From IMG/VR virus record IMGVR_UViG_3300048998_000149, positions 36,510-100,509 of that record: 64,000 bases of DNA; one strand, 5' to 3'. Of this stretch, positions 32,912-61,496 are shown one piece after another. Within the stretch, counting starts at the first letter, position 1, and every line of letters starts with the position of its first letter. The position numbers and the translations under genes were made by a program. This stretch comes from a virus (Duplodnaviria > Caudoviricetes). The notes beneath the pieces are model-generated. The model saw only the letters and a list, made by a program, of their open reading frames with translations. It made no database searches and was not told the origin of the DNA.

Positions 32912-32923
32912 AGGGGGGCCTGG

Positions 32924-33316: not shown

Positions 33317-33341
33317 GCCCGTGACTTTGGAAGGCTGACGT

Positions 33342-33797: not shown

Positions 33798-33846
33798 TAG
33801 CAATGACTCCGGCCAGGGCTGGCACTACCGTGGATGGGGATACCTG

Positions 33847-36550: not shown

Positions 36551-36560
36551 GGAGGGGGCT

Positions 36561-37252: not shown

Positions 37253-37295
37253 ACCCGCCGAACGGGTCCCCCACCACCAAAACGGAAGGAAACGC

Positions 37296-37577
37296 ATGGC
37301 CACCGTCTACCTAGGCAACCCGGGCCCCATATTCAACGGGCAGCCAACAGACGACCCCGATGCGATCACCAAAGTTGTCATCCCCGACGGCCGATCCCTC
37401 GACAGCGCCATCCGGGACATCATCCACAGCGACGGCCTGTGGCAGATCCACAGCACCCGGCCGCCGGCATGGGTCGAATCCGACACTCCTGAACTCGCCG
37501 AAGCCATCGCCAAACACTTCGGATGTCCGATCGGGCGCCCGGCCAACAAGCAGGATGACGAAGGGCGAGTCAAGTGA
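37296..37577 (+). CDS. Hypothetical protein in tail module
   Basis: AAGGA RBS; PAWVESD.PELA.AIA.HFGC. Confidence 0.55.
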   Translation: MATVYLGNPGPIFNGQPTDDPDAITKVVIPDGRSLDSAIRDIIHSDGLWQIHSTRPPAWVESDTPELAEAIAKHFGCPIGRPANKQDDEGRVK

Positions 37578-38269
37578 AAACAGACATCGGACAGGGCAAG
37601 CAGTCCCTCGCATTGGCGGGCGGCGGTATTCCCGGGTATGTGAACACCTCGGGCGCTGTCACCTACAGTTCCACCACGGTCACGCCCACCACCTCGCCAG
37701 CGTGGACTGTGTCCACTTCCAGCAACCTCGGCACCGCGAACGTGTGGACCGGATACATCGTCGTCGCCGGTGGTGGCGTGTCCGGCGTCATGACCTACGG
37801 GGTCATCGTCTCCAACACCGCCACCGCCCTCACCATCGACAAGTGGTACAACCCCGCCAACCCGACGGGCTCCGCAATCGGGCCGCCCGCCGTCAACACC
37901 TCGTTCATCATCGTCCCCGGCAACGCGTCCGTGTTCTACATGGCGCTGACCAACACCGGCACCTTCCCGGCGCCCGGCCCCGTGCACGGCGACACGTCAC
38001 TCGCCGGGGAGCAGACCACCAACGGCCTGTCACGCCAAGCCGCCACCTTCGCCCACACCTTCTCCGCCAGCAGCACCAACAACACCTACACCCTCACCAG
38101 CACCTGGACCTACACCGGCAGCTCGCCAGTCACTCTCACCGGAATCGGCACCTTCGACTCCGCCACCTCATCCACAGGGGTCATGTTCCACGAAACCGCA
38201 CTGTCGTCCAGCGCCACTGTGTCCGCCAATGGGGATCAGATTACGGTCACCCAGACGGTCACTCTCTGA
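37574..38269 (+). CDS. Minor tail protein
   Basis: Thr/Ser-rich; YMALT, GLSRQAAT, GD.ITVT.T end. Confidence 0.65.
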   Translation: MKTDIGQGKQSLALAGGGIPGYVNTSGAVTYSSTTVTPTTSPAWTVSTSSNLGTANVWTGYIVVAGGGVSGVMTYGVIVSNTATALTIDKWYNPANPTGSAIGPPAVNTSFIIVPGNASVFYMALTNTGTFPAPGPVHGDTSLAGEQTTNGLSRQAATFAHTFSASSTNNTYTLTSTWTYTGSSPVTLTGIGTFDSATSSTGVMFHETALSSSATVSANGDQITVTQTVTL

Positions 38270-38375
38270 AGTTATTTGACTACTCGGCGTTATCGGCTAG
38301 CAGACGGCGGGGGTAGCGCGCTTGCTGCTCAATCAAGCAGTCAAGCGCGCCACCTACTACTAGGAGACGATCCCT

Positions 38376-38885
38376 GTGGCAACTCTCTACTGGGCAGCCA
38401 ACGGCGCCATGCCTACCGCGACGGCGCTGGTCAAGCAGTCCACCACCACCGCCATCCGCACCATGCTCCAGATCGGGACCAGTGCCACTCGGCCGATCAA
38501 GGTCGTGGAATGGGGCATCTCGTTCGACGGCAGTGCAGCAGCGACGCCTATCCAGTGCGAGCTGGTCCAGACAGATGTCGGCGCATCCGGCACTAACTGG
38601 ACGGCCCATGTTGCCGCCGGTGTTCAGCCCTACGACGATCCCAATGCGCCAGCCTCAACTATCACGCTGGCGAACAGCGGCTACAGCGTCGGCGCCACGG
38701 TCACGGAGGGATCCATTACCGCTACCCGATACGGCGATCTTCAGCTGATCGCGCCTACGAACCAGTACGTCAAGCAGTGGCCTCTTGGACGTGAGTTCCA
38801 GCTGCCGGTGTCGAGGTTTCTGCGGGTCAGAGTTACGGCAGGCGCGGCGGTCAATGCGTACTGCTATGTGATCTGGGAAGAGTGA
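38376..38885 (+). CDS. Minor tail/structural protein
   Basis: EWGISFDG, QWPLGREF, FLRVRVT. Confidence 0.65.
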   Translation: MATLYWAANGAMPTATALVKQSTTTAIRTMLQIGTSATRPIKVVEWGISFDGSAAATPIQCELVQTDVGASGTNWTAHVAAGVQPYDDPNAPASTITLANSGYSVGATVTEGSITATRYGDLQLIAPTNQYVKQWPLGREFQLPVSRFLRVRVTAGAAVNAYCYVIWEE

Positions 38886-38926
38886 TCGTCTAGCTGCCAG
38901 TCTGTCGCAAGTGAGGGGGGTGGCTG

Positions 38927-41900: not shown

Positions 41901-42154
41901 GGATGGTCCTGCGGGTTCTGGCCGACCTGGCGGGCTCCACCGATGCGGTCGCGCGTACAGCCGCCCTCAGTCGCGCGGTTTCCGACAGCGCCACAGTCAC
42001 AGATCAATGGCCGCTTCCGTCGACTGTTGGGGTCGGCATGACGGCCTATCTGGCGCTGGCTGCCGATCTCGGCATCACAGTGCCGGAGGTTTCAGCCGGG
42101 CTTGGCGTCACTACGCCTGCGGCGATGGCGGCTGGTTCGGGCGTCAGCCACTGA
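38927..42154 (+). CDS. Long repetitive tail-fibre-like protein
   Basis: About 21-22 aa unit R.V.D(S/A/T)A.A.D.V.R repeated along almost the whole 1075 aa. Confidence 0.7.
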   Translation: MARFGRSFPIRPKMSRRFTGTHVALSSSVSDAAAASDGILRTVVESRPVADTAAAVGTATTRVVGSRSVADSAVAVGTLGAQFRTVAEGLLTPDLGLYPSTGLFPNGTGSDSIGSALVLTRAVADTASGSDVVVRGPRRSTRGLTATASASDSVARHLAASRLVADAATAAAGIPFIPRIFSLSDSAAASDAVGCTVALSPSADDAATADDSASLAPLGLIRSVSDSASAQESPTTLVADSAAASDSVSRGALLLFQLVSDVATADDNAFKSSPQTFQRSVSDSAVAVAAITKIRIRKVVADSAAAVASVAQHLVASRGVSDSAVASDVASRVTVRPVADSASGSDSVQRAAFSFTRTVADSALATELVARSLVLPRSAADFAAASDAAVRAEVHSRTFSDSAAAADAVVRAAQIFTRTVADTAAVADGVARTFVVPRAVADSAVAADAAGQAPLGLARSVSDTAVGSDAVSRATVLPRSVSDSAAASDATSQGTHSLARSVADAASAADAVGRAAQVIARVVSDAAVAGDALARLVVEARGPADSASGSDAVSRAGQTLTRTVSDSAAATDVASRGGPSTREAADSASAADSVSIRVVVGRGPSDSATASDSVTRSLTASRPMSDGAGAADTAARAGTAPRAVGDAAAGSDTATRVLVQTRARTDAAAATDTVGQAAVDARGVADSATASDVAGRAPLALFRVTSTGYPGLSVYPSLNLYPDSAPGSDAVVGHVVTARAVADSAIAADGIVRGVPSARTISDSALVGDALTRVLVVTRAVGDNALVGDATGRQVGWLRGLADSASAADVVARDATVGRAASDTALASDSVSRSEIASRVVSDAAAAADVLSRPVLEVGDSSRASDVVARTCVASRAVGDNAAGSDATLLGALRPVVDSASAADGIVRLAVLRHAVADTAPVGDTVLRTWFTSRPVSDSAVGIDAATAFVGGHTRAVSDSAFAADVAALQLRQVSRAVDDTAFAVDAAERSRMVLRVLADLAGSTDAVARTAALSRAVSDSATVTDQWPLPSTVGVGMTAYLALAADLGITVPEVSAGLGVTTPAAMAAGSGVSH

Positions 42155-42202
42155 GTTCGTCTCGGTCGCCTGTTTGAACGATGAGGAAGGTGGCTGGGGT
42201 AG

Positions 42203-42898
42203 ATGTCGGTCCGATTCGATGGGACAGCGAACACGCCGTACACGGCAACGACAGGTCTGCCCTCGACGTCGGTCGTCACGGTCACGTTCTGGGCCCGAAT
42301 CGTCGTTGACAGGAACGCCTTTTCCGGTTTGTGCGCGGTGGCCGCAAGCGTGGGTGGTGCGTCAGTGTTTATGACTCAAACAGATTCTGACGGAACCACG
42401 CTGCGGATGTGGGACACGGCCGCTTCGCTGGGCTCACAGGCCATGACGGTCGGCACGTGGTACCAGCTGGCGTATGTGGTGAGCGGTGCCAACGCTTCGT
42501 TTTACAGCGGCCCGGCCAGCACGTTGAACGTGTCGTCGACTGCCAGTTTCGCTCCGACAGGGTCAACTCCGGGGTATCTGAGCATCGGCCGGGACCAGTT
42601 CAGTGGCGACTACCTGAATGGCGGTATCGCGGCGTTCAAGATGTGGAATGCCGGGCTCAATGCCACTGAGGTGGCCGCCGAACTGGCCCAGTTCGCTCCG
42701 GTGCGGAGCGCGAACCTATTGCGGTATCACCCGTTTCATGTGGCGGAAACCACGGACTATTCAGGTAACAGCAACACGTTGACGGCGGGCACAACGGCGG
42801 CGACTACCGAGTCGGACCCGCCGATTCCCGAGGTGGCGGGCGTGACGCCCCGCCTGGTCGTCCGCTCCCAAGCAGTTATGCGTTCCTCTAGCTTCTAA
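42203..42898 (+). CDS. LamG/concanavalin A-like tail protein
   Basis: VTFWARI, GTWYQLAYV, LSIG, LNGGIA..KMWN..L...EV. Confidence 0.75.
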   Translation: MSVRFDGTANTPYTATTGLPSTSVVTVTFWARIVVDRNAFSGLCAVAASVGGASVFMTQTDSDGTTLRMWDTAASLGSQAMTVGTWYQLAYVVSGANASFYSGPASTLNVSSTASFAPTGSTPGYLSIGRDQFSGDYLNGGIAAFKMWNAGLNATEVAAELAQFAPVRSANLLRYHPFHVAETTDYSGNSNTLTAGTTAATTESDPPIPEVAGVTPRLVVRSQAVMRSSSF

Positions 42899-42906
42899 GG
42901 AGAACC

Positions 42907-44991
42907 GTGCCGTACTCGATCCCAAGCTGGCAGAACTCTCCCTCGACTGCCACTCCGTTGAGCGCGGCGAACCTCGGCCAGTTGAACACGGCGATCAACG
43001 ACCTGGACTCACGAATCACCCAGATCACATTCAACGTCCAACATTATGGCGCAACGGGGAACGGCGCCACGGACGACAGAACGGCCGTCTCGGCGGCTCT
43101 TGCTGCTGCCGCCAGCGGCGGGATCGTCTACTTCCCCCCCGGAACGTACAAGCTGCCTGTCTCAACGCCGTATGTCATCAACCCCCAACTTGTCTCTCTC
43201 CAGGGTTCCGGGCCGACCAGCATCCTCGATTTTTCGTCCGCCTCCGCCTCAGAAGTAATCGACATCGCTAGTAACTCCGGCGACCATCAGGTGAGGTACC
43301 CGCTTGCCCATCTTGCGTTGAGTGGGCCCACTGCGAGTAACACTACCGTTAATGGCGTGGTGCAGGGTGGCGGGAGCAACTGGGCGCCGCATTGCGTGTT
43401 TACAAACGTACGGCTGATCGGCTTTGCTCATCAATGGACAATGTCCTCTAATGTCTGGTCCACGAAGTGGTACAATTGCCATTTCGAGAATTCGGCCGCG
43501 TCTAGCTTCCGGACTGATCCAGCAGGCTCTGGCCTGGGGGAGAACAGCAGCTTTTTCGGATGCCTTTTTTCTGGCAATTTGCAAGAGTCCATTATCTTGC
43601 AAACGCCGGGCACGGATCTAGCCTTCTTTGGTTGTCAATTTGACTACTGCGGGCGCGCCATCAATCACAGCTATGGCCATATCATCTGTGTGGGCTGTCA
43701 CTTCGAGGCCGATAACACGAACGTGGCAACCGGCGCGAACGAGTACATCCTGATGAACAGGTCCGGCTCCCAGGATCTTCCTCTCTTGGAGTTGACCGGC
43801 TGTACCTATTTTCCAGCCTGGACGGCACGCCAGGCCACTATCACCCTGACGGGAACGGTAGGTAGCTGTGAATTAGTCGTTAACGGCGGTCAGGTATCGA
43901 CTGGCTCGTCCTATACCGTACTCACCTTCGTACAAGATACGGGTACGAACCCAGCAGACATCACGATCAACAATCTGAAGTATTCCCAGCCCACGACGAA
44001 CGCACCGCTCAACCTGGTGACCGCTTCGGGTGCGTTCGCTATTACTCCGAGCACTACCGGTCAGGCCGTGCCGCTGGCCGAAGGTCTGACGGGTGGCACC
44101 ATTGCGTTAACGCCACTCTGGGGGGTGTATCCGCCGACGGTCACACAGGTCGGCACCGCCGGTTCAACATCGTATTGGTATAAGTGGGTTGCCCAAATCG
44201 TACAAGGCTCCGGCGTCGGCGAAACAGCACCGAGCAGTGCGATCCAAACCTCCACCGGCAACGCGACCCTGAACACCATCAACTACAACAGTGTGGCTGG
44301 CATAGCGACACCAGGAGCGACTTCATACCGCTTACTTAAATCGACCAACGGCACGACATACACTTCGCTGGCGAACGGCCTTGCAACACCATCTTATAAG
44401 GACCAAGGGCAAAGCACGTCAGCGTACACTGCAACAACGTTCGTCAACCCGACGCCCAGCATCACCGCAGGCGGCATTATTCTTCGCGGGGTAGGCGCAA
44501 ACAACAACGTTGCAACGAACTATGGCAGCGAGTGCGCCCTGTTCACGGACAATGACAGCCGCTTGTTTTTAATGGCCAAAAATGGGCCAATATCCATACT
44601 CCCCGGTGGTCAAGGAGTGAGTACGGGCCAGGTTACTGTTAACACATCGCAGACCACCTTCAATGGCGCCGTCGCCCACGCCGTTAACGCGCAAACGCTG
44701 TCTTCCAACGGTGCCGTGACGCTGAACGCCAACCTGGGCGATGTTCAGGCTGTGACATTGCAGGCAAACGCAACGTCGTCCAGCATTACAAACCCATCAA
44801 CGGGGCAGCGTATGACGATCCGCTGGATTCAAGATGCAACCGGCGGCCGTACAGTTAGTTGGCCAACTAACTGTAAATTTGCCGGGGGTAGCGCTCCAAG
44901 CAGCACCACGGCTAGTAAGGCGACCTCTGCGACGTTCGAGTATGACGGCACCAACTGGATTGAGGTGTGCCGTGCGGTTGCCGTTGGCTGA
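42907..44991 (+). CDS. Tail spike / depolymerase with pectate-lyase-3-like beta-helix
   Basis: FNVQHYGATGNGATDDRTAV..A...GGIVYFPPGTY; Asn/Cys ladder; C-terminal QDATGGRTVSWP domain. Confidence 0.8.
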   Translation: MPYSIPSWQNSPSTATPLSAANLGQLNTAINDLDSRITQITFNVQHYGATGNGATDDRTAVSAALAAAASGGIVYFPPGTYKLPVSTPYVINPQLVSLQGSGPTSILDFSSASASEVIDIASNSGDHQVRYPLAHLALSGPTASNTTVNGVVQGGGSNWAPHCVFTNVRLIGFAHQWTMSSNVWSTKWYNCHFENSAASSFRTDPAGSGLGENSSFFGCLFSGNLQESIILQTPGTDLAFFGCQFDYCGRAINHSYGHIICVGCHFEADNTNVATGANEYILMNRSGSQDLPLLELTGCTYFPAWTARQATITLTGTVGSCELVVNGGQVSTGSSYTVLTFVQDTGTNPADITINNLKYSQPTTNAPLNLVTASGAFAITPSTTGQAVPLAEGLTGGTIALTPLWGVYPPTVTQVGTAGSTSYWYKWVAQIVQGSGVGETAPSSAIQTSTGNATLNTINYNSVAGIATPGATSYRLLKSTNGTTYTSLANGLATPSYKDQGQSTSAYTATTFVNPTPSITAGGIILRGVGANNNVATNYGSECALFTDNDSRLFLMAKNGPISILPGGQGVSTGQVTVNTSQTTFNGAVAHAVNAQTLSSNGAVTLNANLGDVQAVTLQANATSSSITNPSTGQRMTIRWIQDATGGRTVSWPTNCKFAGGSAPSSTTASKATSATFEYDGTNWIEVCRAVAVG

Positions 44992-45067
44992 CGCGGAAGT
45001 GGCGTGACGCTACGCCTACGCCACTTCCCTGGGCCACGTCGGAGATCGGACGACGAGGTGGCCTGGC

Positions 45068-45218
45068 GCGGGAATCCCGCGCACCCAACGGCGGGAATCC
45101 TGGCGGGAGTCTGCGGGAATCCCGCGTGACCCGTTGGCAGGAATCCCGCAGGACCCGAGGCGGGAACCCCGCGCCCCTCCACCCCCTGGCCGGGCGGGAA
45201 TCTGCGCGGGGTTCCCGC
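45068..45218. repeat. Intergenic array of 8 GCGGGAWTCCCGC-like near-palindromes
   Basis: Copies at 45068, 45091, 45103, 45113, 45137, 45160, 45194, 45206. Confidence 0.85.
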
Positions 45219-45251
45219 TGGTGAAACTACCGACCGAAGGGCGCGTGCCGC

Positions 45252-45722
45252 ATGCCTCGCTGGTGGCGTCTGAGAGATATCCCCAGGAAACGTTACGGTC
45301 GCCGCCGCATGCTCCTCGGCCTGATCGGCGTCATCTGGCTGGCGTACGGGTGGGGGCTGTTCAACAGCCCCGCGTCGTCGCTGAGGCAGTTCGGGCATCT
45401 CCCCAGCCTCATCGACGAGGTGCTCTCCGACCACCGCTCCGCCCTGCTGTGGGCGCTGTGCGGGTTGACGGGAATCGCCGCCGCCGTGTTGCCGCGGGGG
45501 CGCATGCCCGACGCCTACGGGTTCAACGCGCTGCTCATGCCGCCGCTGATCTGGACTGTGCTGTCCGGCTGCTCCTGGCTGATTTTTGTGATCACCCGGG
45601 GGGAGTTCGGCAGCCCCCGCAGCTGGATGTCGGCGGTGATCTGGTCGGCCGCCGTCACCGTCCTGCTCATCACCTCCGGCTGGCCCGACCCAGACGACGC
45701 CGACCACCCGGGCGAGGAGTGA
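45252..45722 (+). CDS. Four-TM membrane protein of lysis region
   Basis: Hydrophobic helices; position before endolysin. Confidence 0.65.
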   Translation: MPRWWRLRDIPRKRYGRRRMLLGLIGVIWLAYGWGLFNSPASSLRQFGHLPSLIDEVLSDHRSALLWALCGLTGIAAAVLPRGRMPDAYGFNALLMPPLIWTVLSGCSWLIFVITRGEFGSPRSWMSAVIWSAAVTVLLITSGWPDPDDADHPGEE

Positions 45723-46141
45723 CGGCGGTGTCCTCAACGTGGGTAACCATCCTGTCCGCGTCCGGCGGCATCCTCGCCGCAATCGTCACCTACCTGGGCA
45801 TGCGGATCACCCAACGCCAAGCCGCGAAAGCCCAGCAAACCACCGCCGAAATCGAAACAGCCAAGGTTGACGCGCAGGCCTACGCGGAGGCCCGCACGAT
45901 CTGGGATTCCCTCATCAAGGATCTGCGGAACACGGTCGCCGACCAGCGCCGCGAGATCACGAAGCTGCGCGAGGAGACAGCGAGTTTCCGCGCCCGACTG
46001 GAAGACCTCGAGCAGAAGCGCAGCGGCGACCGCTACGCCATTCACGTGCTCACCGTGTACGCCCGGCAGCTCCTCAAGGTGATCACAGCGGCTGATCTGG
46101 TGCCGCCGCCCCCGCCCGAGGGATTGGATCTCGAAGGATGA
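45719..46141 (+). CDS. N-terminal TM plus coiled-coil lysis-region protein
   Basis: GTGA overlap; TM, heptads, PPPPP end. Confidence 0.65.
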   Translation: MTAVSSTWVTILSASGGILAAIVTYLGMRITQRQAAKAQQTTAEIETAKVDAQAYAEARTIWDSLIKDLRNTVADQRREITKLREETASFRARLEDLEQKRSGDRYAIHVLTVYARQLLKVITAADLVPPPPPEGLDLEG

Positions 46142-46341
46142 GCGTCGCCGACGAACTCGTGGTGACGGCCCTGGTCCGCGACCCAGACAAATGTCTACGG
46201 CTCATCCAAAGGCACACGCCCACCGGCAAACGGTGCCGTGAGTGCTGCATCCCCGCCACTCTCCCGCAGCCCTGCCGCCCCTACCGCTTGGCTCGAATCG
46301 CCGCCCATCGGATGGAGTCCGAACGTGTCCGCAGCAGATGA
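46138..46341 (+). CDS. Small hypothetical protein
   Basis: ATGA overlap; H...C.EC...PC. Confidence 0.45.
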   Translation: MSVADELVVTALVRDPDKCLRLIQRHTPTGKRCRECCIPATLPQPCRPYRLARIAAHRMESERVRSR

Positions 46342-47386
46342 CGCCTGGCGCAATGACGACCTAGGATGGTTCCGGCACGTCCCCGGCGTAGACGACGAGC
46401 CGCTCGCCGCAGAGCTCGCACCGCTGGCGAGCCCGAACGCCAGCACCAACGCGCTGGGTATTGATTGCGCGAGCTATCAGGGTGTCCCGAACTTCGTGCA
46501 GGTGGCCGCGTCCGGGCGTTCGTTCTGCTATCTCAAGAGCAGCGACGGGGCAAGTTCCAGCTACCCATCGCTGGACCCGCAGTATCAGGGTGCCACGGCT
46601 GCCGGGATGATCACCGGGCTCTATCACTACGCCCAGCCAGCGTTGACCCCCGAAGCGAATGCCGATGCGTTCTCGGCCCAGGTCAACCGTCTCGGCGCGA
46701 TCGTCGGCCACCTGCCGCCATGTCTTGACCTCGAAACAGGCAGCGGGAACCTGTCCAGTTGGGCGCAGCGGTTTGTGACGCGGCTGCGCGCCAACACTGG
46801 GTGCATTCGGGTGATGGTCTACAGCAACGCGTCGTTCTTCCAGAACCAGATCACTGAGTCCTGGATGGACTCCAACATCGCGCTGTGGATCGCCAGCTGG
46901 GGAACGGCGCCCGGTAAGCCTTCGTACACCAGTCCACGCGTGGCGCTGCACCAATATTCGTCCACAGGCCTGGTGTCGGGAATCGCCGGCAACGTCGATC
47001 TCTCCTATGCGATCTGGCCCCTCTCGACCCTCGTCCCAGGTTCGGAGGCACCTCCCGTGACCACTCCCCCAGCCGCCTCGGCCACCAGCGTTCTAACCGC
47101 TGACGAGCAGGCCAAACTCACCGCCTGCTACCAGCAGTTCTCCGGCTCATCGGTCGTGGGTCAGTGGCCAGGCTGGGCCAGTTGGCCGAGCGGCTCCGGG
47201 CGCTCGCTCACGTTGGTCGACTATTGCCGGCAGAACGACGTTGCGATTGTGGCGCTGAAGGACGAGTTGGATGCGATCAAGGCTCAGCCGTCCGCCATGT
47301 CGGGCGCGCTGTCCGACACGGATGTCACGCGGATCGCCACTGCTGTTGCCGACTTGATGGCTTCCCGGATGCAGAACCGGCCGTGA
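46325..47386 (+). CDS. Endolysin, GH25 muramidase
   Basis: GID.ASYQG, YLK.SDG, G.YHYA, LDLE, LWIA.W, HQYSS.G.V.GI.GNVD. Confidence 0.9.
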   Translation: MSAADDAWRNDDLGWFRHVPGVDDEPLAAELAPLASPNASTNALGIDCASYQGVPNFVQVAASGRSFCYLKSSDGASSSYPSLDPQYQGATAAGMITGLYHYAQPALTPEANADAFSAQVNRLGAIVGHLPPCLDLETGSGNLSSWAQRFVTRLRANTGCIRVMVYSNASFFQNQITESWMDSNIALWIASWGTAPGKPSYTSPRVALHQYSSTGLVSGIAGNVDLSYAIWPLSTLVPGSEAPPVTTPPAASATSVLTADEQAKLTACYQQFSGSSVVGQWPGWASWPSGSGRSLTLVDYCRQNDVAIVALKDELDAIKAQPSAMSGALSDTDVTRIATAVADLMASRMQNRP

Positions 47387-54002: not shown

Positions 54003-54986
54003 TCAGTTGCGGGCCACCGCCACCAGGTGGGGAGAACGCTCCGACGGCGGCAGGATGCCCCGCTCCTTCAGGGCCGCCTTGGCCTGCCGCCCGTACTTCG
54101 TGTCAGCGCCGAGCAGCTTCGCCGCATCGGTGCCGTTGAGGTCCTTGCCCTCCGCCCACTGCTGCTCGAGCAGCGCCATCAGCTTCTCGAACTTCGTCCT
54201 GCCGGGCAGTTCGTCTGCCAGCGGGTTCCCGCGTTCCTCGGCGGGTTTCCCGCGTGTCGCCGCTGCGGGAGTCCTGGAGGATTCCCGGCGGGATACCCGG
54301 CGGCCTTCCCGCGCCAACTCCCTCGCGGATTCCCGCGTCGCGTCCGCCTCGGCCTGCACTCGGATCCGTTCCAGATCGGCGGCGTGTTCCCGCGCCTGCC
54401 GCTCTGCCTCCCGCTGGTCAGCGAACTGCTGCTGGCGTTCCCGTTCGGCCGTTTCCCGCGCCTCCCGTTCCTGCCGCTCCTGGGATTCCCGCGCCTCCCG
54501 CCGAGCCCGCTCGGCCTCGGAGACCTCCCAGGAGGTCGCCATCGCGTGCAGCCCCATGACTCGGATGTAGAGCACCACGGGCACCGTCCCGGCGATCAGT
54601 GCGATCACAGGACGCAGCCACGACGGCAGCACCACGCTGGCGTCGAGCGCCGCAAGGACAGTGTGCAACGCATTGAACGCGATGATCGCCACGAACGCGA
54701 ACAGGATCGTGTGCCGAGCGTTGCGGCGCACCGGCCAGTCACCGTCGTGCGGCAGCGTGGCGTCGTTGCTGTAAGGCATGACCACGACGACGCCCAGGTC
54801 CACGATCACCGGGTACAGGTACGCCCACGGGTCGGGAACTCCAGCCCACTTGACCATCTCGTATGACCCGTATGACACCCAGACGAGGGCGAAGAGCCCG
54901 AGGCTGTGCAGCGCGCGGCCACGCCAAGCCCGGCGACGAGCTACTGAATCATCGTCATCTGCCCGTTCCGACAGCGCGTGGCTCAT
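54003..54986 (-). CDS. DUF2637-like (plasmid spread, Spd-type) membrane protein with coiled coil and C-terminal HTH
   Basis: Four TM helices, VSY, AYLYPVIVD, FNALH; RE-rich coil; LNGTDAAKLLG..TKYGR HTH. Confidence 0.7.
   Translation of the reverse strand: MSHALSERADDDDSVARRRAWRGRALHSLGLFALVWVSYGSYEMVKWAGVPDPWAYLYPVIVDLGVVVVMPYSNDATLPHDGDWPVRRNARHTILFAFVAIIAFNALHTVLAALDASVVLPSWLRPVIALIAGTVPVVLYIRVMGLHAMATSWEVSEAERARREARESQERQEREARETAERERQQQFADQREAERQAREHAADLERIRVQAEADATRESARELAREGRRVSRRESSRTPAAATRGKPAEERGNPLADELPGRTKFEKLMALLEQQWAEGKDLNGTDAAKLLGADTKYGRQAKAALKERGILPPSERSPHLVAVARN
54221..54495 (-). repeat. GCGGGAWTCCCGC-like motif cluster inside the DUF2637 gene
   Basis: GCGGGTTCCCGC, GCGGGTTTCCCGC, GCGGGAGTCC, GGATTCCCGG, GCGGGATACCCGG, GCGGATTCCCGC, GGGATTCCCGC. 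Confidence 0.7.
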
Positions 54987-55294
54987 GCCGCATCCTCCCC
55001 CGCTAGCAACGCTTTGCCTTGGGCCACGCGATACCCGACGGTGTCCTTGTGGATACCCAGTTCCCTGTCCACATCCCGGTAGCTAACCTTCCCCGGACCC
55101 TCGCTGTTGGCGATGGCCAGGGCGATCGGCAGGGCGTCCTTGGCTGCGTCGAGGATGTGGTGCACGCTCCGGACGTGCTGGATGTTCGCGTCGTGGTCAT
55201 CGCTGGCGGGTCGGCGGGCGTAGGCCCGGATCTGCTTCACGATCCGGGCGGCTTCACGGTCGGGTTTGCCGTTGGCGCGGGGCAGCGTAGACAT
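54983..55294 (-). CDS. Small HTH protein
   Basis: SYRDVDRELGIHKDTVGYRV. Confidence 0.65.
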   Translation of the reverse strand: MSTLPRANGKPDREAARIVKQIRAYARRPASDDHDANIQHVRSVHHILDAAKDALPIALAIANSEGPGKVSYRDVDRELGIHKDTVGYRVAQGKALLAGEDAA

Positions 55295-55396
55295 GATTCG
55301 GCGTCCTTCGGGTGTCGGGATACGCCGGACAGGTTAGGCGAGGGGAGGCTGTCGCCGCTTCCCGACACGCCGTCATGGGATTACCGCGCCCGCTAC

Positions 55397-55684
55397 TTAG
55401 GCCGGCTTCTGCCAACGAGTGGGGATGCGCATGTTGTGGATGGGCGACTCTTCCGCGTAAACGCGGCGCTCCTCATTCTCCGCATCTTCACGGGTCTGAT
55501 GCCAGGTGACGCGCGTCTTGGCAATGTCCCACCACCACCGCCAAGCCGTGCTGCGGTGCTGGTTGTACCTCTTCTGCGGATCCCTGGCGCTGCCCACGTA
55601 CAGAAGCGCACCGTCTTTGTCGTAGTACCGGTATACGGCGACCCTGCCGGGTTGCTGCGACCAGTGGTCGGACCTAACCATCAA
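55397..55684 (-). CDS. GIY-YIG nuclease domain protein
   Basis: VYRYYD..G.LLYVGSA.DP..R..QH...E.R....E.P.HN. Confidence 0.8.
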   Translation of the reverse strand: MMVRSDHWSQQPGRVAVYRYYDKDGALLYVGSARDPQKRYNQHRSTAWRWWWDIAKTRVTWHQTREDAENEERRVYAEESPIHNMRIPTRWQKPA

Positions 55685-56511
55685 GCGCTCCTGTACCGGT
55701 CAGCGACCTGGCGCAGGATGGCGCTGGCCTCATCATCGAACACCGCGAGCGGCTCCAGCTTGGCGAACTGCTCGACGTAGGGAGACACGTCGGGAGGGAT
55801 CAGGACGACCTGCCTCCGCAGGATGCCGGGGACCACCGCGCTCTCGTCGTACAGATTCCAGTTGGATACGGGGAACACTGGGCGCGGCGTACCGAACGGA
55901 ATGATTCCGACGCGGACGACGGGCTTCCTGGCTACCAGTTCGATGTGTTCCAACTGGCGGACCATCATCTCGGGCGGCCCTGCGGCCCATCCAAGGGCGC
56001 CTTCGGTGGTCAGGATCGTGATCCGACGCCCGGGTTCATCAAGGACGTTCTGGCCTTCGAGACGCGCCCTGACTGAACCCCCCGCATCGGCGGGCGTCGT
56101 ACCCCCTGCAGCGAAGACCGCCTGCATGTACTCGGCTGTCTGCAGCAGGCCGGGGATGATGACGGGGGAGAACTCGCGGATCTCCGTGGCGTCGCGGTTG
56201 AGGTCTGCGATTCGTTTCTGAAACTCGGCCCGGTTCGCGCGGGATAGCACTACGCGCCGGTTCGTGGCCTTGACGTGTTCAGCTAGTTCGATCAGGCGCT
56301 GTCGGATCTCTGTGGGTGCGTGGTATGCCTCTGCGAGCTTGGCTACGTCGGCCGGGTTCGGGACGTTGTTCTCCCTCTCGATACGGCTGATCTTGGCCTG
56401 GGAGAAGCCCGTTCGCTCGGCCGCTTGCATGCCGGTGAGCCCGGCGTCCTGGCGGAGCTGTTTCAGGGTGCGCGACAGCTCGTTCAGGCCGCCGGGTCCG
56501 GTGTTTGCCAT
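55681..56511 (-). CDS. XRE-family HTH regulator with DUF5753 domain
   Basis: L..LR..AGL, SQAKISRIE, IPGLLQTAEY, EGAL, M..QL.H, VGIIP. Confidence 0.9.
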   Translation of the reverse strand: MANTGPGGLNELSRTLKQLRQDAGLTGMQAAERTGFSQAKISRIERENNVPNPADVAKLAEAYHAPTEIRQRLIELAEHVKATNRRVVLSRANRAEFQKRIADLNRDATEIREFSPVIIPGLLQTAEYMQAVFAAGGTTPADAGGSVRARLEGQNVLDEPGRRITILTTEGALGWAAGPPEMMVRQLEHIELVARKPVVRVGIIPFGTPRPVFPVSNWNLYDESAVVPGILRRQVVLIPPDVSPYVEQFAKLEPLAVFDDEASAILRQVADRYRSA

Positions 56512-56518
56512 CGGTCGG

Positions 56519-57058
56519 TCAGGCCGCCCGCCGCTGCCGGTACTCGGGATGCGCGGCGCGCCACTCGTCATATTCCACGGCCTCGTCCCACATGGCCTGG
56601 GCCGCCTTGGCCCATGCCTCAGGGAGGTCGGCCACCTGGGCCTCGAAGAACTTGCCCTGCGGGTCGTAGTAGCTGATCGCTACCCGCTCCCCGCCGTTGA
56701 TCACGAAGCAGTCCGTCAGGTGCCCGAGCTCCTGCTCGTCCACAACCAAGACCCGGATCTGCTCCCCGTACTCGACGTTCAGTGGGAACTGGACGCCCAA
56801 CTCAAAGCGCAGATAGTCGTTCAGCGGCCCCTTCGGGATCACGCGGACTCGACGCAGGACAGTGCCTCCGGCGACATTGGCGCGGATGCCGTCCAGCCAT
56901 CCTTGCCATGCATCGTCGACCTCAACGGTTCCATCGTCGAGCCACCGTCGAAAGTGCGGATCGTCGCCAGCACTGTCGTACCAGTCCCGCGTCTCGACGC
57001 GGAGCCGGTCGCGCGTGCTGGGTCGGCGCAGGTAGGCGCCGAGTTCCTTCAGGTCCAT
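56519..57058 (-). CDS. DUF6879-like protein
   Basis: R.ETRDWY, G...RRVRV...PL.DYLRFE, N...GE.IR. Confidence 0.8.
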   Translation of the reverse strand: MDLKELGAYLRRPSTRDRLRVETRDWYDSAGDDPHFRRWLDDGTVEVDDAWQGWLDGIRANVAGGTVLRRVRVIPKGPLNDYLRFELGVQFPLNVEYGEQIRVLVVDEQELGHLTDCFVINGGERVAISYYDPQGKFFEAQVADLPEAWAKAAQAMWDEAVEYDEWRAAHPEYRQRRAA

Positions 57059-57061
57059 GGG

Positions 57062-57256
57062 TTACCCCTTCAGTGCTCGCAGGAGCGCCGCCGGCACGAC
57101 CACGAGGTCTTCGTTGCCGGGCAGGCTGAGCTGTGCGCGGGTGGCAGCGTCGGGCCGGTAGCCGCGCATAAGCAGGCTCCCGTCCTCGAGTTCGTAGATC
57201 TCGGGGCAGTCGTCGCCTGCTCCGCAGTCCTTGGCCAAGCTCCTGACGATCTTCAT
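57062..57256 (-). CDS. Small partner protein of DUF6879/XRE triad
   Basis: C....CP.IY....G...RGY, LP..E..V.VP..LL. Confidence 0.7.
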   Translation of the reverse strand: MKIVRSLAKDCGAGDDCPEIYELEDGSLLMRGYRPDAATRAQLSLPGNEDLVVVPAALLRALKG

Positions 57257-57328
57257 GGGTTCCCTCCCGGGCCGGTGGTCCTTACCCGTCTAGTGTCCCC
57301 GCCATCAAGGTCGTCAGTCAATCTGGAC

Positions 57329-57356
57329 TTGAATATACGGATCGAAGGTGCATAAT
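57329..57356 (+). promoter_or_regulatory. SigA-like promoter for the transfer operon
   Basis: TTGAAT-16 nt-CATAAT in the divergent intergenic region. Confidence 0.5.
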
Positions 57357-57458
57357 GGCAACTAACCGGGACGCCCGCCGCTGACAGTGGACTTCCCTCC
57401 CCGGCTCGTGGCGGGTGACCCGGCTCCACTGACCTCCTACGCGGGAGCTGCAAAGCCG

Positions 57459-57743
57459 ATGACCACCGTCCAGCGCAACTACGAACTGTCCGAGGAGACC
57501 AAGGACCTGATTGACCAGGCGTACACCGCCCTTGACAAGGAGGTGTGTGCGATGCGCAAGCGGTTCGCCACTGAGACGGCCGCATGGCAACGCTCCGATG
57601 CTGGAGGGTTCGCGGGGGACTGGCTGGCAGACATGGCGCAGCTGCGCGACGCCGTGATGATCGCCGAGTGGAACACCAACCCTCTCACTGATGGCTGCAC
57701 TTCGTTCGACGAGAACGGCGACCCGATCGACGACGATGACTAG
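57459..57743 (+). CDS. Hypothetical protein
   Basis: GGGAG RBS; first gene of operon. Confidence 0.55.
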   Translation: MTTVQRNYELSEETKDLIDQAYTALDKEVCAMRKRFATETAAWQRSDAGGFAGDWLADMAQLRDAVMIAEWNTNPLTDGCTSFDENGDPIDDDD

Positions 57744-58065
57744 ACCGGCCCCCACCCCAAGAAAGCCCGCGACGTCTCCCCTGGCCGGCGGGGACGTCGC
57801 GGGCGCCGGTCTGACTGTCGTCGAGGACCTGCACTGGTCGAAGCGTCTGGGCACCTACCGGCCGTCCGGCATGGGCGACAGTTGGCTGTTCGCCGCCCCG
57901 ATCGCGGGTACCGCCATTGGCTGGGTCATCAACCACGGCCTGTGGGCTCAGGTGCTTTACCTGGCTGCGGGGGCGTTGGTGCTGGTCATCCTGGCCGATC
58001 TGATCGCCGAGCAGGTTCAGAAGGTCGAGAAGAAGCGTCGCAGGCTGGCACGAGCCAGCAGGTAA
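57736..58065 (+). CDS. Small two-TM membrane protein
   Basis: Hydrophobic helices, basic tail; start uncertain. Confidence 0.55.
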   Translation: MTRPAPTPRKPATSPLAGGDVAGAGLTVVEDLHWSKRLGTYRPSGMGDSWLFAAPIAGTAIGWVINHGLWAQVLYLAAGALVLVILADLIAEQVQKVEKKRRRLARASR

Positions 58066-58104
58066 GTAACCGGCGCGCAGCGCCACGACAGGAAGGTGAT
58101 CGAG

Positions 58105-58266
58105 ATGGGCAAGCGTGAGCGTGAGACGTTCAAGGCCGAACTGGAGAAGCTCGGCAAGATCAAGGAGGAGGGGCCGGAGTTCTACAAGCAGAACGCCAAG
58201 GTCGCCCGCGCGGAGAAGAAGCTCAACATCGCTGAGAACCTGTGGGTTCGGAACCAGGTGGACTGA
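58105..58266 (+). CDS. 53-aa charged protein (not in ORF track)
   Basis: MGKRERETFKAELEKLG...; AGGTG RBS; coupled to next. Confidence 0.5.
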   Translation: MGKRERETFKAELEKLGKIKEEGPEFYKQNAKVARAEKKLNIAENLWVRNQVD

Positions 58267-58406
58267 TGGGCATGTGGACACGAACGGTCCGCTCGAGTGT
58301 CAAGAAGACCGAGGTACGTGAGCAGGGTTGCCGGGGCGGCAGCTTCGGCGGCCGGGGCAGGACTGTCACCGGCAGCGCGCTGTCCGGCGGGAAGAGGAAG
58401 CGCTGA
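58266..58406 (+). CDS. 46-aa basic peptide (not in ORF track)
   Basis: TGATG coupling at both ends. Confidence 0.4.
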   Translation: MGMWTRTVRSSVKKTEVREQGCRGGSFGGRGRTVTGSALSGGKRKR

Positions 58407-58573
58407 TGGGCTTCTGCAAGGACGGCAACCACCAGCCGCGGCGGATGCGTCTGAATGACTGGGACGACGTGACCCAGTGCGCGCGCTCGGGCTGCGGGCA
58501 TTGGATTCAGGTCCACCACAACGTGCGGGGCTCGAACCCGAACTTCAGTCAGGGCAAGCGAAAGGGCGGGTAA
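58406..58573 (+). CDS. Small Cys/His peptide
   Basis: TGATG coupling; C....H...C....C. Confidence 0.45.
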   Translation: MGFCKDGNHQPRRMRLNDWDDVTQCARSGCGHWIQVHHNVRGSNPNFSQGKRKGG

Positions 58574-58576
58574 GCG

Positions 58577-60601
58577 GTGGCAGGCCGCCGTAAAAAGCTC
58601 CGCAACGCGAGCCCTATCGACTTGATGGGGCTCGTAGTTGTCTTCCTGGGCAAGCACGCCGGTCGGTTCGTGTGGCGTTGCCGGGCCGGGCTGATGCCGG
58701 TGTGGTGGTGTATCGCGTTCCTGGTCGCAGGCTGGGTGGGTTCGTGGTGGCCGCTGTACTGGCCCATCCCGATCAGCCTCGGGCTGGTGGTTGCGTCGGT
58801 GCTGTGGTTTGCGGGGGAGAAACTGTCGCCGCACGCACAGTCCATGTGGCTGTGGCTCGTCCCGGACGGCCTGGACGACGGCAAAGCCGGCGTGTTGGAC
58901 CGGGCCACCGAACGCGGGTATCTGTGCCTGCTGATGTTGGGCGGCGGTGGCTGGCTGTCGGCGCGGATGCAGTACGGCTGGGTCCAGGACGTCCAACTGG
59001 CGCTGCTGATCCTGCTGGCCGCGCTGGGGGTGCCGTGGTGGTGGCATCGGGGTTTCCGCCGCCGTAAGCCGTTGAACGTGTATGTGCGGAAGTGGAAGCG
59101 TGTCGAGCAGAACGAGGATTTGAAGGTTTGGCACGGCTCGAAGATCACGGGCACGACGACCGCGGCGAACGCGACGCTGCTGGTGGTGAAGCTGCGCGGC
59201 GGTCGCACCGTCAAACATGTCGGCGGGGATGCCCTGATCCTGTGTTCGCAGCTTGGGCTCCGTCCGGGGGCGATCACGGTGGCCGTCGACAAGGCGGCTG
59301 CTCGGCGGGTCCTGGTGCGGGTTGTGCCGCGCGACCCGTGGAAGGGGGCTCTTCCGCATCCGCTGCCGCCGGTCGGGTCGATGCTTCTGTCGAAGACCCC
59401 CAAGCCGACGGTCGGCAAGTATGAGGATGCTTCCGACGACATGCTCAAGCTTGGGCAACATCTCTTAGTGGTCGGCGCAACCGGTTCGGGCAAGTCGGTT
59501 TGGCTTGAGGCGTTGCTCGCGTGGATCTTGGCGTATGCGGATGCTCGGGTCGTCGCGGCCGACCTTGCCTCGGGCGCGACGTTCGGGATCTGGGAGACGG
59601 TGTTCGCCGCGCCCCTGGCCACGGATGTCCGGTCTGCGCTGGAGTTGTTGCGGCGCGTCTTCGGGGTCATCGAATACCGCGAGGGTCTGCTGTCGCGGAT
59701 GAAGCGCGAAGGTCAGCTCATCGACGTGCTCGAGCCGTCCCCGGAGATGCCGTGGCTGTTCTTCATCATCGACGAGTTCCCCGACCTGATCAAGGCGGCG
59801 AAACAGGCCAGCCTGGATGTCATCACCATCCTCGAGCGGCTGGCGAACAAGGGCCGCAAGGTTGGGGTGTGGCTCATCCTGGGGGCGCAGAACCCCACCG
59901 TCACCGATGTGGGCTCGACCGAGCTGCGCGGTGCGCTCACCGGCATCGTCGGGCTCGGCCTGTCGCAGCAGCAGTCCAAGACCTTGTGGGGTTCGGATCG
60001 CGCCGACGGTTGGGACTCGACGCCGCTCACGATCGGCACGTACCTGTTGCGGGATCGGGACGCCGAGCACCAGACGCCGCGGGTGGCGAAGGGTCTCTAC
60101 ATCCCCCCGCGTCAGCGTCTGGATTTGATCCGTGCGGCGTCATCTCGCCGCCAGCCGCTCGACCGACAGTCGGCGTTGATTCTCGAAGGAAACACGCCCG
60201 CAGTCCCGCTTGGGGAGACCGCCCGGACGGGCGCGTTTGAGGAGGTGGGGATGCCGGAGGCGGCGCAGCCCCGCCTCCGCGTGGTGCGGGAACCCGCCAG
60301 CGCCCGGGGCGGGAATCCCCCCGTGCTCGAGGCGGGAATCCCGACGCCTGCCGACGGAGGAATCTCGCGCGGGGCGTTCGCGGGAATCTTGGGGCACACG
60401 CGGGAATCCCGTTCGGCTGAACTTGACGAGAGGGTCTATGCCGAGGTTCCGGATTCCCGTCAGGGCGGCATCGGCGGGACAGACCTGGCAACGCAACTTG
60501 AGGTGTCGCGGGATCGGGTCAAGCGGTCGTTCGCCCGGCTGGAGAAGGCGGGGCGGGTCAGGCCTCACCCGCGTGGCGATGGCACCTGGTGCCGCACCTG
60601 A
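58577..60601 (+). CDS. traB: TraB-like FtsK/SpoIIIE DNA translocase
   Basis: N-terminal TM helices ending VPWWWHR, HLLVVGATGSGKS Walker A, FIIDEFPDL Walker B, GRKVGV.LI...QNP, C-terminal winged helix. Confidence 0.85.
   Translation: MAGRRKKLRNASPIDLMGLVVVFLGKHAGRFVWRCRAGLMPVWWCIAFLVAGWVGSWWPLYWPIPISLGLVVASVLWFAGEKLSPHAQSMWLWLVPDGLDDGKAGVLDRATERGYLCLLMLGGGGWLSARMQYGWVQDVQLALLILLAALGVPWWWHRGFRRRKPLNVYVRKWKRVEQNEDLKVWHGSKITGTTTAANATLLVVKLRGGRTVKHVGGDALILCSQLGLRPGAITVAVDKAAARRVLVRVVPRDPWKGALPHPLPPVGSMLLSKTPKPTVGKYEDASDDMLKLGQHLLVVGATGSGKSVWLEALLAWILAYADARVVAADLASGATFGIWETVFAAPLATDVRSALELLRRVFGVIEYREGLLSRMKREGQLIDVLEPSPEMPWLFFIIDEFPDLIKAAKQASLDVITILERLANKGRKVGVWLILGAQNPTVTDVGSTELRGALTGIVGLGLSQQQSKTLWGSDRADGWDSTPLTIGTYLLRDRDAEHQTPRVAKGLYIPPRQRLDLIRAASSRRQPLDRQSALILEGNTPAVPLGETARTGAFEEVGMPEAAQPRLRVVREPASARGGNPPVLEAGIPTPADGGISRGAFAGILGHTRESRSAELDERVYAEVPDSRQGGIGGTDLATQLEVSRDRVKRSFARLEKAGRVRPHPRGDGTWCRT
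60286..60460. repeat. GCGGGAATCCCG motif cluster in traB linker
   Basis: About seven copies (60286, 60309, 60332, 60356, 60380, 60400, 60449) read in different frames. Confidence 0.8.
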
Positions 60602-60688
60602 CGATGGTCCGCGCCTGCGCGCGTATAGACGTACACGCGAACCGCCCAGCAGCCCCACCGCCCGCCCAATCGCCCAGAGCTCGCCGGG

Positions 60689-61496
60689 TCATCTGATCCA
60701 TTCTCCGTGACCGTCGGGAGCTGCCTTCCCAGCCTTGCGGAGGCGGGTGAGTGTTCGGTACACCCTGGAGCGGTCCTCTCCAAGGCGCCGCGAGAGATCT
60801 GACGCGCCGATGGCCCCTTGTCCTTCCTGGGGGGATCTCGGCGAGCACCCGCGCGTTGAGATCAGCGAGCACTTCCTGACGCGACTTCCCCCACGGCACC
60901 TCATGCAGCATCTGGTCAGTTGCGGCGTCCACGCGTGCGGGAATGCCGTTCGCCGCATGCTCGGTTGGCGATTTGGGTGTACACCATGCTGCGTCAGGGA
61001 AGGCGTCGATCACATCGCTGAAGCGGCCGGTGACCTTCCAATGGCGGTCGCTGGCGGTGCGTTCGACGTCGCCCGCCTCGACTAGTTCATGGAGCAGGTC
61101 CCTGACCACGCGCGATGACATGCCTGCCTCGCGGGCGAGGCGCTTAGCGGAGACCCCCGATTCGAAGGATCTCAACGCCGTAAGTAGCTGGAACCGTTCG
61201 GTGCCAGGAAGGCACGAGCGACGCAGCCCGACAGTGTGGACGATGTTCTCGCGGGGCCCTTCCTCGGCGATTGCCCGCCGCTCCGCTTCCTCCGCCAGTG
61301 ACTTGTTGGGGTAACACTCCCAACCGATTGCGCCTACTTCCATCCACCAGTCCTGGCCGGTCAGGTGGTTGCGGACGCGTCCCCGGGGGTCATTGGTCGA
61401 CCCGACATACAGCAGTGCGCCGTGATGGCCGTAGATGCGGTAGACGAAGTGCGCGTAGTAGAACGGACGGTCGCTGAGCGGTAGACCGATGCTCAC
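60689..61496 (-). CDS. GIY-YIG nuclease + HTH + TraB-like winged helix (frameshift at C6 run 60829-60834)
   Basis: VYRIY...LLYVGST.DP..R..H; SAKRLAREAG HTH; shifted frame gives QGAIGASDLSRRLGEDRSRVYRTLTRLRKAG. Confidence 0.7.

Follow-up and report, generated by a model that had tools for sequence, protein, structure and literature searches.

The locus described here raises the question of whether a tailed phage can possess, besides its virions, a machinery that passes its DNA directly from one cell to another. It lies in a stretch of 64,000 nucleotides (the window) corresponding to bases 36510-100509 of the 100,509-base IMG/VR virus record IMGVR_UViG_3300048998_000149, which is classed as linear, and it comprises two divergent operons, one ending in the gene for an FtsK/SpoIIIE protein (P0001, hereafter the pump) and the other in the gene for a membrane protein (P0002). 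A first-pass annotation of the window had read these genes as a Streptomyces-type conjugation module linked to a full set of virion genes. Our analysis led to the view that they may form an integral TraB/Spd-like module for the translocation of double-stranded DNA (dsDNA), loaded at arrays of a short palindrome and giving the phage a capsid-free means of spread; judging from sequences, structure models and analogy with plasmid systems, we give this view about an even chance. Genes were called on the basis of the G+C content at third codon positions (GC3) and of family matches. Positions refer to the window, those marked contig refer to the whole record, and L numbers designate the loci compared.

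The pump matches the FtsK/SpoIIIE family PF01580 (2e-14) and contains a Walker A motif, GATGSGKS, with the lysine K306, and a Walker B motif, IIDEFP. In its AlphaFold2 (AF2) model, which has a mean predicted local distance difference test score (pLDDT) of 81, hydrophobic helices form an N-terminal bundle (aa 1-185), after which a beta domain leads into a RecA-like ATPase (aa 290-540); a disordered linker at aa 541-606 connects the ATPase to a C-terminal winged helix-turn-helix domain (wHTH, aa 609-673) of H-H-H-beta-beta order with a pLDDT above 90. The top Foldseek matches of the pump are FtsK motor domains (E 1e-17, target-normalised template modelling score 0.61-0.69), after which come the conjugation coupling protein TcpA and EccC, and in relatives of the pump the C-terminal wHTH gives MarR, IclR and ArsR-type Pfam matches. 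The gene closes its operon after four small open reading frames (ORFs) whose stops and starts overlap or nearly abut: the start of the second overlaps the stop of the first (ATGACTAG), indicating translational coupling, and the stop of the fourth lies 3 nt 5' of the GTG start of the pump. Family match, model, Foldseek and ORF junctions bear out the first-pass description of an FtsK/SpoIIIE protein with transmembrane (TM) helices, an ATPase and a wHTH at the end of a small-ORF operon.

The best NCBIfam match of the pump is plasmid_TraB (NF041214; 64.6 bits, E 6.5e-18, aa 198-470), ahead of EccCa (47.8 bits) and FtsK (26.2 bits). No match to FtsK_4TM, FtsK alpha or FtsK gamma (PF13491, PF17854, PF09397) was found in the pump, in a search in which true FtsK proteins show all three. 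Its position was further analyzed in a maximum likelihood tree (IQ-TREE, 357-column core) containing six plasmid proteins (from pIJ101, a 9-kb S. californicus plasmid, pFP4, pTFSG2, the NBC_01278 plasmid and pZL12), eight FtsK proteins including one from Amycolatopsis, three EccC proteins and one Bacillus-phage FtsK-like protein. The pump falls in a phage-borne clade of 16 rows (support 100/100) nested among plasmid Tra/TraB proteins, and a branch with support 94/93 separates this side from the FtsK (93/86) and EccC (100/99) clades, the Bacillus-phage protein being sister to the FtsK clade. The nearest plasmid neighbours of the phage clade are the Tra proteins of pFP4, pTFSG2 and pZL12, with weak support (66/68) in a tree that has few reference rows and in which the Tra proteins do not form one supported clade. 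Among isolated phages, tblastn with the pump returned only Bacillus-type FtsK-like proteins (25-30% identity) and no isolated actinophage. Closer homologs of the pump (P0004-P0020) have identities of 49-75%. By its predicted architecture and sequence kinship the pump is thus TraB-like rather than FtsK- or EccC-like, as the first-pass annotation had it, and is not an equivalog of the characterised TraB.

A candidate for the DNA read by the wHTH is the 13-base palindrome GCGGGAATCCCGC. With one mismatch allowed, the window has 9 such sites where 0.39 would be expected, and none of 100 shuffled sequences had as many. The 10-mer GCGGGAAYCC has 14 copies in the record, confined to four places. Clusters are found in the intergenic region at 45 kb, in the part of the pump gene that encodes the disordered linker and inside the P0002 gene (Table 1), and two further copies lie near DnaN (contig 6784, perfect, and contig 6864). 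The 45-kb array is located 3' of a terminator-like hairpin and 5' of the lysis genes, and the copies in the linker array are spaced by 23, 23, 48 and 20 nt and occupy all three reading frames. Besides a coding repeat in the tape measure gene, this palindrome is the only clustered 8-mer family of the genome. Two relatives whose pumps are about 60% identical (L022 and L023) have four copies of the motif in their linker-coding DNA, and in L018, with a 72% identical pump, a perfect copy is present in the membrane-protein gene and the linker has degenerate ones. The motif is absent from L024 (pump 50% identical), in which the wHTH recognition helix reads SRHVVGRAL versus [ST]R[DS][RK]V[KN]RS[FL] elsewhere, a single contrast. 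The recurrence of the module's motif at 45 kb, to which the first-pass annotation had drawn attention, is therefore well beyond the number expected and is accompanied by conservation in relatives. By analogy, the location of the linker array inside the pump gene would mirror that of the clt sites of Streptomyces plasmids, which lie in or near traB; TraB assembles at clt, where it recognises 8-bp repeats (PMC4170104).

Other short repeats were seen during these scans. In 60-kb phages and in an Amycolatopsis locus (L006:9427-9612, L012:9469-9545 and L021:9407-9732), GC-rich short words (for example CCGGTGCC, seven times) cluster within the 3' half of the gene for DUF2637, immediately 5' of the pump gene, in mixed frames and strands. 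A scan of the collection for a pair of palindromes gave 25 matches, about the chance level. Among them, perfect 21-nt tandem repeats containing the same palindrome (GGTGCGGGAATCCCGCAGGAG) were found at L065:13315-13377 and L070:4805-4867, in unrelated IMG/VR contigs that have no pump gene and no protein in common with this phage.

The putative partner of the pump, P0002, is encoded by the last gene of the divergent operon. Its AF2 model has four long helices, taken as TM helices, a continuous helix spanning aa 124-228 that would form a coiled coil (pLDDT above 90 over about aa 165-220) and a small helix-turn-helix (HTH) at aa 265-308. When P0002 and three homologs were compared with the DUF2637 neighbours of pump homologs, hhalign gave a probability of 78% (E 1.8e-5, 80 columns) in an alignment that spans the motif S-Y...W..YP..VD; the same region aligned weakly with the DUF2637 protein of pTFSG2 (6.5% probability), and the atlas look-alikes of P0002 include SpdB_N and DUF2637 clusters with scores below 0.9. 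In the 60-kb phages and the Amycolatopsis loci a true DUF2637 gene lies directly 5' of the pump (9e-22 in L021, 8.8e-5 in L004), and L020 has a DUF2637 gene (2.5e-22) about 3 kb upstream of it. Homologs of P0002 itself are present in L018 and L024, divergent and 3-4 kb from the pump, in the same arrangement as in this phage, so that a membrane protein of this predicted four-TM, coiled-coil and HTH build stays linked to the Tra-like gene. The case for a DUF2637-like partner from position is stronger than that from sequence.

These genes belong to phages in the relatives as well. The pump clade consists of phage DNA throughout (11 IMG/VR loci), and three complete genomes of about 60 kb, with direct terminal repeats and rated 100% complete, bear the DUF2637 and pump genes between TerL and portal. 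The 60-kb relatives were recognised as phages by PHROG matches to portal and TerL, and were negative for PF10145 and PF05065. In Amycolatopsis genomes phage-like genes and one for a GntR/UTRA regulator accompany the DUF2637-pump pair. Eighteen related loci (L004:12665-13372 on the minus strand, L020:8624-9295 on the plus strand and 16 others) encode, within a few genes of the pump, a conserved inner-membrane protein of the YdjM family (PF04307, about 1e-25) that this phage lacks.

On the phage genome of the record examined here, the late arm lies to one side of the module and the early/replication arm to the other. No direct repeat of at least 13 nt was found in its flanks, and G+C content is uniform. 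Neither an integrase nor a Rep gene adjoins it, and no Rep was recognised among the ORFs of the record that were scanned. The module thus lacks the combination of Int, Rep and Tra bounded by att repeats that defines an actinomycete integrative and conjugative element (AICE; definition after PMC3218068). From the lack of flanking repeats, the even G+C content, the absence of Int and Rep beside it and the phage-borne clade of its pump, we conclude on sequence grounds that the module is an old, integral component of these phages and not a recent AICE insert, in line with the first-pass suggestion that it is no delimited passenger; relatives also keep the linkage.

The record is estimated to be 86% complete by CheckV. 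Its last 357 bases (100153-100509, positions 63644-64000 of the window) overlap bases 32-400 with 92% identity, the final 127 bases of the record being an exact match within this overlap. In addition, L018, a contig of 15 kb, encodes homologs of the genes at the left end of the record (an HTH_31 protein, DnaN and others) within 3.5 kb 3' of its pump. Because of the overlapping ends and the synteny with L018, the contig most likely wraps round a complete genome of about 100 kb, which suggests a closed genome assembled across a strain-variable junction. The part of the record outside the virion and lysis arm encodes DnaN, an N6 methylase, RecT-like and RuvB-like proteins and a tyrosine recombinase.

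This recombinase is Xer-like (PF00589, 6e-28, with a SAM-like N-domain) and is encoded at contig 32636-33598 on the plus strand (L015:12636-13598), 3 kb before the window. It is the only recombinase of the record. The module lies about 57 kb downstream of it, a distance that shrinks to about 43 kb when measured the other way round the wrapped genome. A dif-like site, CATAA-TTTGTG-TTATG (CATAA-N6-TTATG, L015:12623-12638), overlaps its start codon. The earlier statement that no integrase or att junction is visible therefore holds inside the window, where no flanking repeats were found, and does not extend to the sequence 3 kb outside it. The recombinase may serve integration of the phage or the resolution of dimers of a plasmid form. 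In the whole record, of which the ends overlap, no AAA_31, CbiA or ParB_N match was obtained, so inspection of the rest of the contig gave no ParA, ParB or Rep evidence for the phage-plasmid idea put forward at first.

As to the host, the DUF5753 regulator encoded in the module has its closest named homologs in Pseudonocardia sp. (71%) and in metagenome-assembled genomes (MAGs) of Pseudonocardiaceae, relatives of the pump occur in Amycolatopsis genomes, and the nearest relative, L018, is in a MAG labelled Mycobacterium. Within the high-GC actinobacteria, the host thus looks like a member of the Pseudonocardiaceae or Mycobacteriales and is not demonstrably a Streptomyces, a designation in the first-pass annotation that goes beyond these named relatives.

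Taken together, we propose the following mode of action, built on models and on analogy. The 674-residue protein would assemble into a membrane-anchored hexameric motor of the FtsK type. Its wHTH would dock on the GCGGGAATCCCGC arrays, one of them written into the DNA for its own linker and others located at 45 kb and inside the P0002 gene, and the motor would then drive double-stranded phage DNA through a septum or a cell-cell contact. The four-TM/coiled-coil/HTH protein, with the small membrane ORFs, would serve as a SpdB2-like channel or partner set. As a result, the genome of the phage or prophage, the presumed cargo, would spread without a capsid inside host filaments or cells or from one to another. 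The phage may then have two transmission routes, virions and cell-to-cell transfer. SpdB2-like genes of phiC31 and VWB are said to have been proposed in 2015 to help in spreading phage DNA.

The combination of virion genes with Tra genes is not the first of its kind, since pZL12 and pFP4 already link both. The Streptomyces plasmid-phage pZL12/phiZL12 (GenBank GQ919031; Zhong et al. 2010, J Bacteriol 192:3747, as cited in PMC3583192 and PMC4487206) resembles this phage in its size of about 90 kb and in having a full tailed-virion module, an FtsK/SpoIIIE tra gene (pZL12.71c) and an integrase/recombinase, and its conjugal transfer reportedly requires the major tra gene and adjacent genes (PMC3583192). 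It differs in having ParA and ParB, neither of which was found in the record of this phage. The portal shows no kinship with pZL12 or pSLE1, the other virion genes are unrelated to those of pZL12, and the palindrome arrays and the HTH_31/DUF5753 set belong to this phage, unlike pZL12. In pFP4 (NC_017833) and in the linear plasmid pTFSG2 the order is DUF2637, small ORFs and FtsK/SpoIIIE gene, as in this module, with Tra proteins about 27-30% identical to the pump. Unlike in these plasmids, the DUF2637-like gene of the phage belongs to a separate, divergent operon, lies 3.6 kb away and scores below the Pfam threshold. pFP4 itself was reportedly described as a Streptomyces plasmid-phage by Chen et al. 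in 2012 (Plasmid 68:170).

The TraB/clt/Spd systems of pSVH1 and pIJ101 have a membrane-anchored FtsK-like motor (hexameric in the plasmids) with a C-terminal wHTH, a four-TM partner (SpdB2), small coupled genes and a divergently transcribed regulator (PMC4447253, PMC4170104), all of which have likely counterparts here. SpdB2 is an oligomeric, pore-forming partner of TraB with four TM helices (PMC4447253). In pSVH1 and pIJ101 the wHTH of TraB reads short clt repeats (PMC4447253, PMC4170104); here reading of the palindrome by the wHTH would be the counterpart. Unlike those systems, the module has 13-bp palindromes instead of direct 8-bp repeats, its regulator is not of the GntR type and its replicon is a phage of 100 kb. 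Closer to it are the uncultured actinophages of about 60 kb (L004-L008), which have a pump of the same clade (35-41% identity; 100/100) and a paired membrane protein, as a backward-facing DUF2637 and FtsK-like pair with short repeat clusters beside or inside it. They differ in their size, in the direct terminal repeats of three of them, in the lack of a tyrosine recombinase, in the location of the pair, which has TerL on one side, portal on the other and a YdjM-family gene close by, and in repeat sequences that are different from those of this phage.

A number of observations weigh against a TraB/Spd-like transfer module. The match of the pump to NF041214 is below the equivalog cut-off (64.6 versus 800 bits), and its identity to TraA of pZL12 is 22% across the ATPase core. 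P0002 has no Pfam match in hmmscan at E 0.01; against DUF2637 (PF10935) it reaches 11 bits (E 0.0165, aa 49-143) for a gathering threshold of 22.8 bits, a sub-threshold match that lies inside the TM core and is the only DUF2637 signal of the whole record, and it shows no similarity to SpdB of pIJ101. Because of these results and of the 78% hhalign probability, the DUF2637-like label is plausible and not proven, so that of the first-pass description of P0002 the TM/coiled-coil/HTH anatomy stands firmly and the family name less so. No GntR regulator of the Kor/TraR type was found in the module. Distant relatives have no 8-mer repeat arrays in the 3' ends of their pump genes, with repeats upstream instead. 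The motif is a palindrome, a symmetry that suits a dimeric regulator, whereas the sites described for TraB are direct 8-bp repeats, and the position of the 45-kb array would fit an operator of the lysis genes. Finally, the host may be non-mycelial, as the closest relative, L018, is in a MAG labelled Mycobacterium. A transfer role would still be compatible with such a host, since non-tuberculous Mycobacterium is also among the groups with predicted FtsK-type AICEs (PMC3218068).

The symmetry and position of the motif are also the starting point of an alternative in which the palindromes are operators of a dimeric phage regulator (the 103-aa HTH protein, the HTH_31/DUF5753 regulator or P0002 through its HTH), while the pump acts non-specifically or on another site. 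The 13-bp dyad, the fact that the best array is intergenic, with a terminator-like hairpin before it and the lysis genes after it, and the perfect copy in the early arm (contig 6784) all agree with it, and in Streptomyces plasmids palindromic sps sites inside spdA are bound by SpdA and not by TraB (PMC4170104). Two of the clusters, however, lie deep in coding DNA, distant from any promoter, and coincide with the transfer-like gene pair, as they do in relatives, and the sole relative without the motif (L024) has an altered helix in the wHTH of its pump; we consider this explanation unlikely. An improbable one of similar standing is that the pump serves maintenance, moving extrachromosomal or freshly replicated phage copies across closing septa into daughters or spores as FtsK and SpoIIIE do, with the arrays as loading or centromere-like sites and the Xer-like recombinase and dif-like site resolving dimers. 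The FtsK motor fold, the dif-like site at the start of the recombinase gene and the regular 22-24 nt spacing of the array, which resembles that of centromere or iteron arrays, would fit, and with no ParA/ParB another segregation device would be needed. This presupposes the putative plasmid state of the phage; moreover the pump groups with plasmid transfer proteins and not with chromosomal FtsK, it gives no match to FtsK gamma (PF09397) or FtsK_4TM, and five complete 60-kb relatives have the pump and no tyrosine recombinase.

It is quite unlikely, in our view, that the pump is an envelope device acting against or for incoming DNA (superinfection exclusion, defence or an aid to genome entry) and not an export machine. 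PHROGs does class phage FtsK/SpoIIIE-like proteins as moron/host takeover, and the module adjoins cargo genes and a toxin-antitoxin-like HTH_31/DUF5753-DUF6879 pair, but the FtsK-like proteins of Bacillus phages group with FtsK in a separate clade, and the conserved pairing with DUF2637 and a wHTH presumed to be sequence-specific fit a plasmid transfer set better. Least of all do we believe that the module is a passenger, that is, an AICE or plasmid fragment carried by a phage, or that the contig is chimeric. A cargo block and two GIY-YIG ORFs do flank the module, and the contig is metagenomic with ends that overlap imperfectly. We rejected this candidate on the absence of flanking repeats and the even G+C content reported above, on the order membrane protein, pump and DnaN arm repeated in the independent relative L018, and on the linkage kept in L024; the distance to the only recombinase and a clade that is phage-borne throughout also speak against it.

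Returning to a transfer module loaded at the palindromes, a gene convergent with that of the pump deserves mention. It encodes a GIY-YIG protein of 312 aa, and its 3' third contains an out-of-frame copy of the pump wHTH (60689-60958, minus strand) that is 45% identical to aa 623-673 of P0001 and 53-56% identical to the wHTH of relatives. The two frames join at a run of six C (about 60831-60836), and when read together they give the whole domain, from ELD..VLAE.P to GEW, so that either a homopolymer error or a frameshift appears to split a GIY-YIG nuclease bearing the DNA-reading domain of the pump. Such a protein could be a homing endonuclease aimed at the locus or a nuclease working with the pump. 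A search of the representative library with the 89-aa out-of-frame ORF returned only repetitive proteins. In a distant relative (L031) a GIY-YIG ORF also lies directly upstream of the pump.

We know of no enzyme identified in Streptomyces conjugation that makes the DNA break needed by a ring-shaped motor. As a tentative extension, which we regard as possible and hardly probable, a clade of uncultured actinophages, including the lytic-looking 60-kb genomes, would own a TraB-like pump that is loaded at arrays in its own linker-coding DNA and passes naked phage genomes between cells or through hyphal septa, as a second, capsid-free route of infection; in this phage the wHTH-bearing GIY-YIG nuclease could supply the break for threading a circular genome into the ring motor. 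If the pump does move phage DNA between cells, views of host range, spread and defence that are based on virions miss one route, and TraB-type conjugation would be common to plasmids, AICEs and phages. The clade offers a testable wHTH, conserved candidate loading arrays and a nuclease bearing the same DNA-reading domain.

Table 1. Positions of the module, the palindrome arrays and the virion and lysis genes in the window, with strand (. for features without one) and basis of assignment.
Feature	Position	Strand	Basis
TraB-like FtsK/SpoIIIE dsDNA translocase (P0001), 674 aa	58577..60601	+	Pfam, NCBIfam, AF2, Foldseek, tree
Putative DUF2637-like membrane protein in SpdB2 position (P0002), 327 aa	54003..54986	-	AF2, profile comparisons, linkage
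GIY-YIG + wHTH ORF, 312 aa, convergent with the pump gene	60558..61496	-	Pfam GIY-YIG, MarR-like wHTH
Intergenic array, six palindrome copies, 22-24 nt apart	45068..45218	.	Sequence
Five GCGGGAAY(CC) copies in pump linker-coding DNA	60286..60412	.	Motif scan; linker disorder from AF2
Palindrome and half-site cluster inside the membrane-protein gene (coiled-coil/linker coding part)	54223..54495	.	
103-aa protein, C-terminal HTH-like segment	54983..55294	-	Translation; no family match
Short GIY-YIG endonuclease ORF, 95 aa	55397..55684	-	Pfam GIY-YIG 8e-7; PHROG endonuclease 6e-16
XRE-type HTH_31 + DUF5753 regulator (Scr1/WhiJ-like)	55681..56571	-	DUF5753 2e-31, HTH_31 4e-17
DUF6879 protein, partner of the DUF5753 regulator	56519..57058	-	Pfam DUF6879 5e-29
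First ORF of the leftward operon, 64 aa	57062..57256	-	GC3 0.85, translation
Divergent promoter region between the operons	57257..57386	.	Sequence; sigma-70-like sites 57329-57361
Small ORF 1 of the pump operon, 118 aa, acidic C-terminus	57387..57743	+	GC3 0.81; no family match
Small two-TM membrane protein	57736..58065	+	Translation, start scan; coupled
Charged helical ORF, 56 aa	58096..58266	+	GC3 0.89, translation
Small Cys/His-containing ORF	58328..58573	+	GC3 0.85, junction sequence
Virion and lysis arm	12441..47386	+	PHROGs; Pfam GH25
TerL	12441-13847	+	PHROGs
Portal	14801-16723	+	PHROGs
Tape measure	26705-31183	+	PHROGs
Tail protein	34469-36550	+	PHROGs
GH25 endolysin	46238-47386	+	Pfam GH25

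The first-pass annotation had placed phage-type genes on both sides of the module. The virion and lysis arm is indeed present, but directly to the left of the module lies a block of about 6 kb of cargo. This block (47921-52665, between the lysis genes and the module) encodes a NOX-like ferric reductase of 655 aa with Ferric_reduct, FAD and NAD domains, a LysM protein, a sortase-domain protein and a secreted protein of 447 aa that matches no family. Within the virion arm, the likely capsid-region proteins (17278-20772) gave only PHROG matches of unknown function, and an HNH/endonuclease-like ORF of 365 aa (20952-22049, plus strand; phrog_681, phrog_559) is found amid the head genes.

Between the cargo and P0002, a non-coding stretch of about 600 nt (53390-54000) has a lower G+C content and contains GGAGAACYGTCATTCTC twice in tandem as well as two terminator-like hairpins with T runs behind them; no Rfam match, tRNA or att candidate was found in it. 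A blastn comparison of the module region with 50,697 phage records gave no match.

The two operons diverge from an intergenic region with back-to-back sigma-70-like, promoter-like sites. In the leftward operon the gene for the 103-aa protein is coupled to that of P0002 through an ATGA overlap. The HTH_31/DUF5753 and DUF6879 genes overlap, and in some homologs (P0126 and P0156) they form a single fused protein. A contig of 107 kb with a 49% identical pump also encodes a 56% identical copy of this HTH_31/DUF5753-DUF6879 pair.

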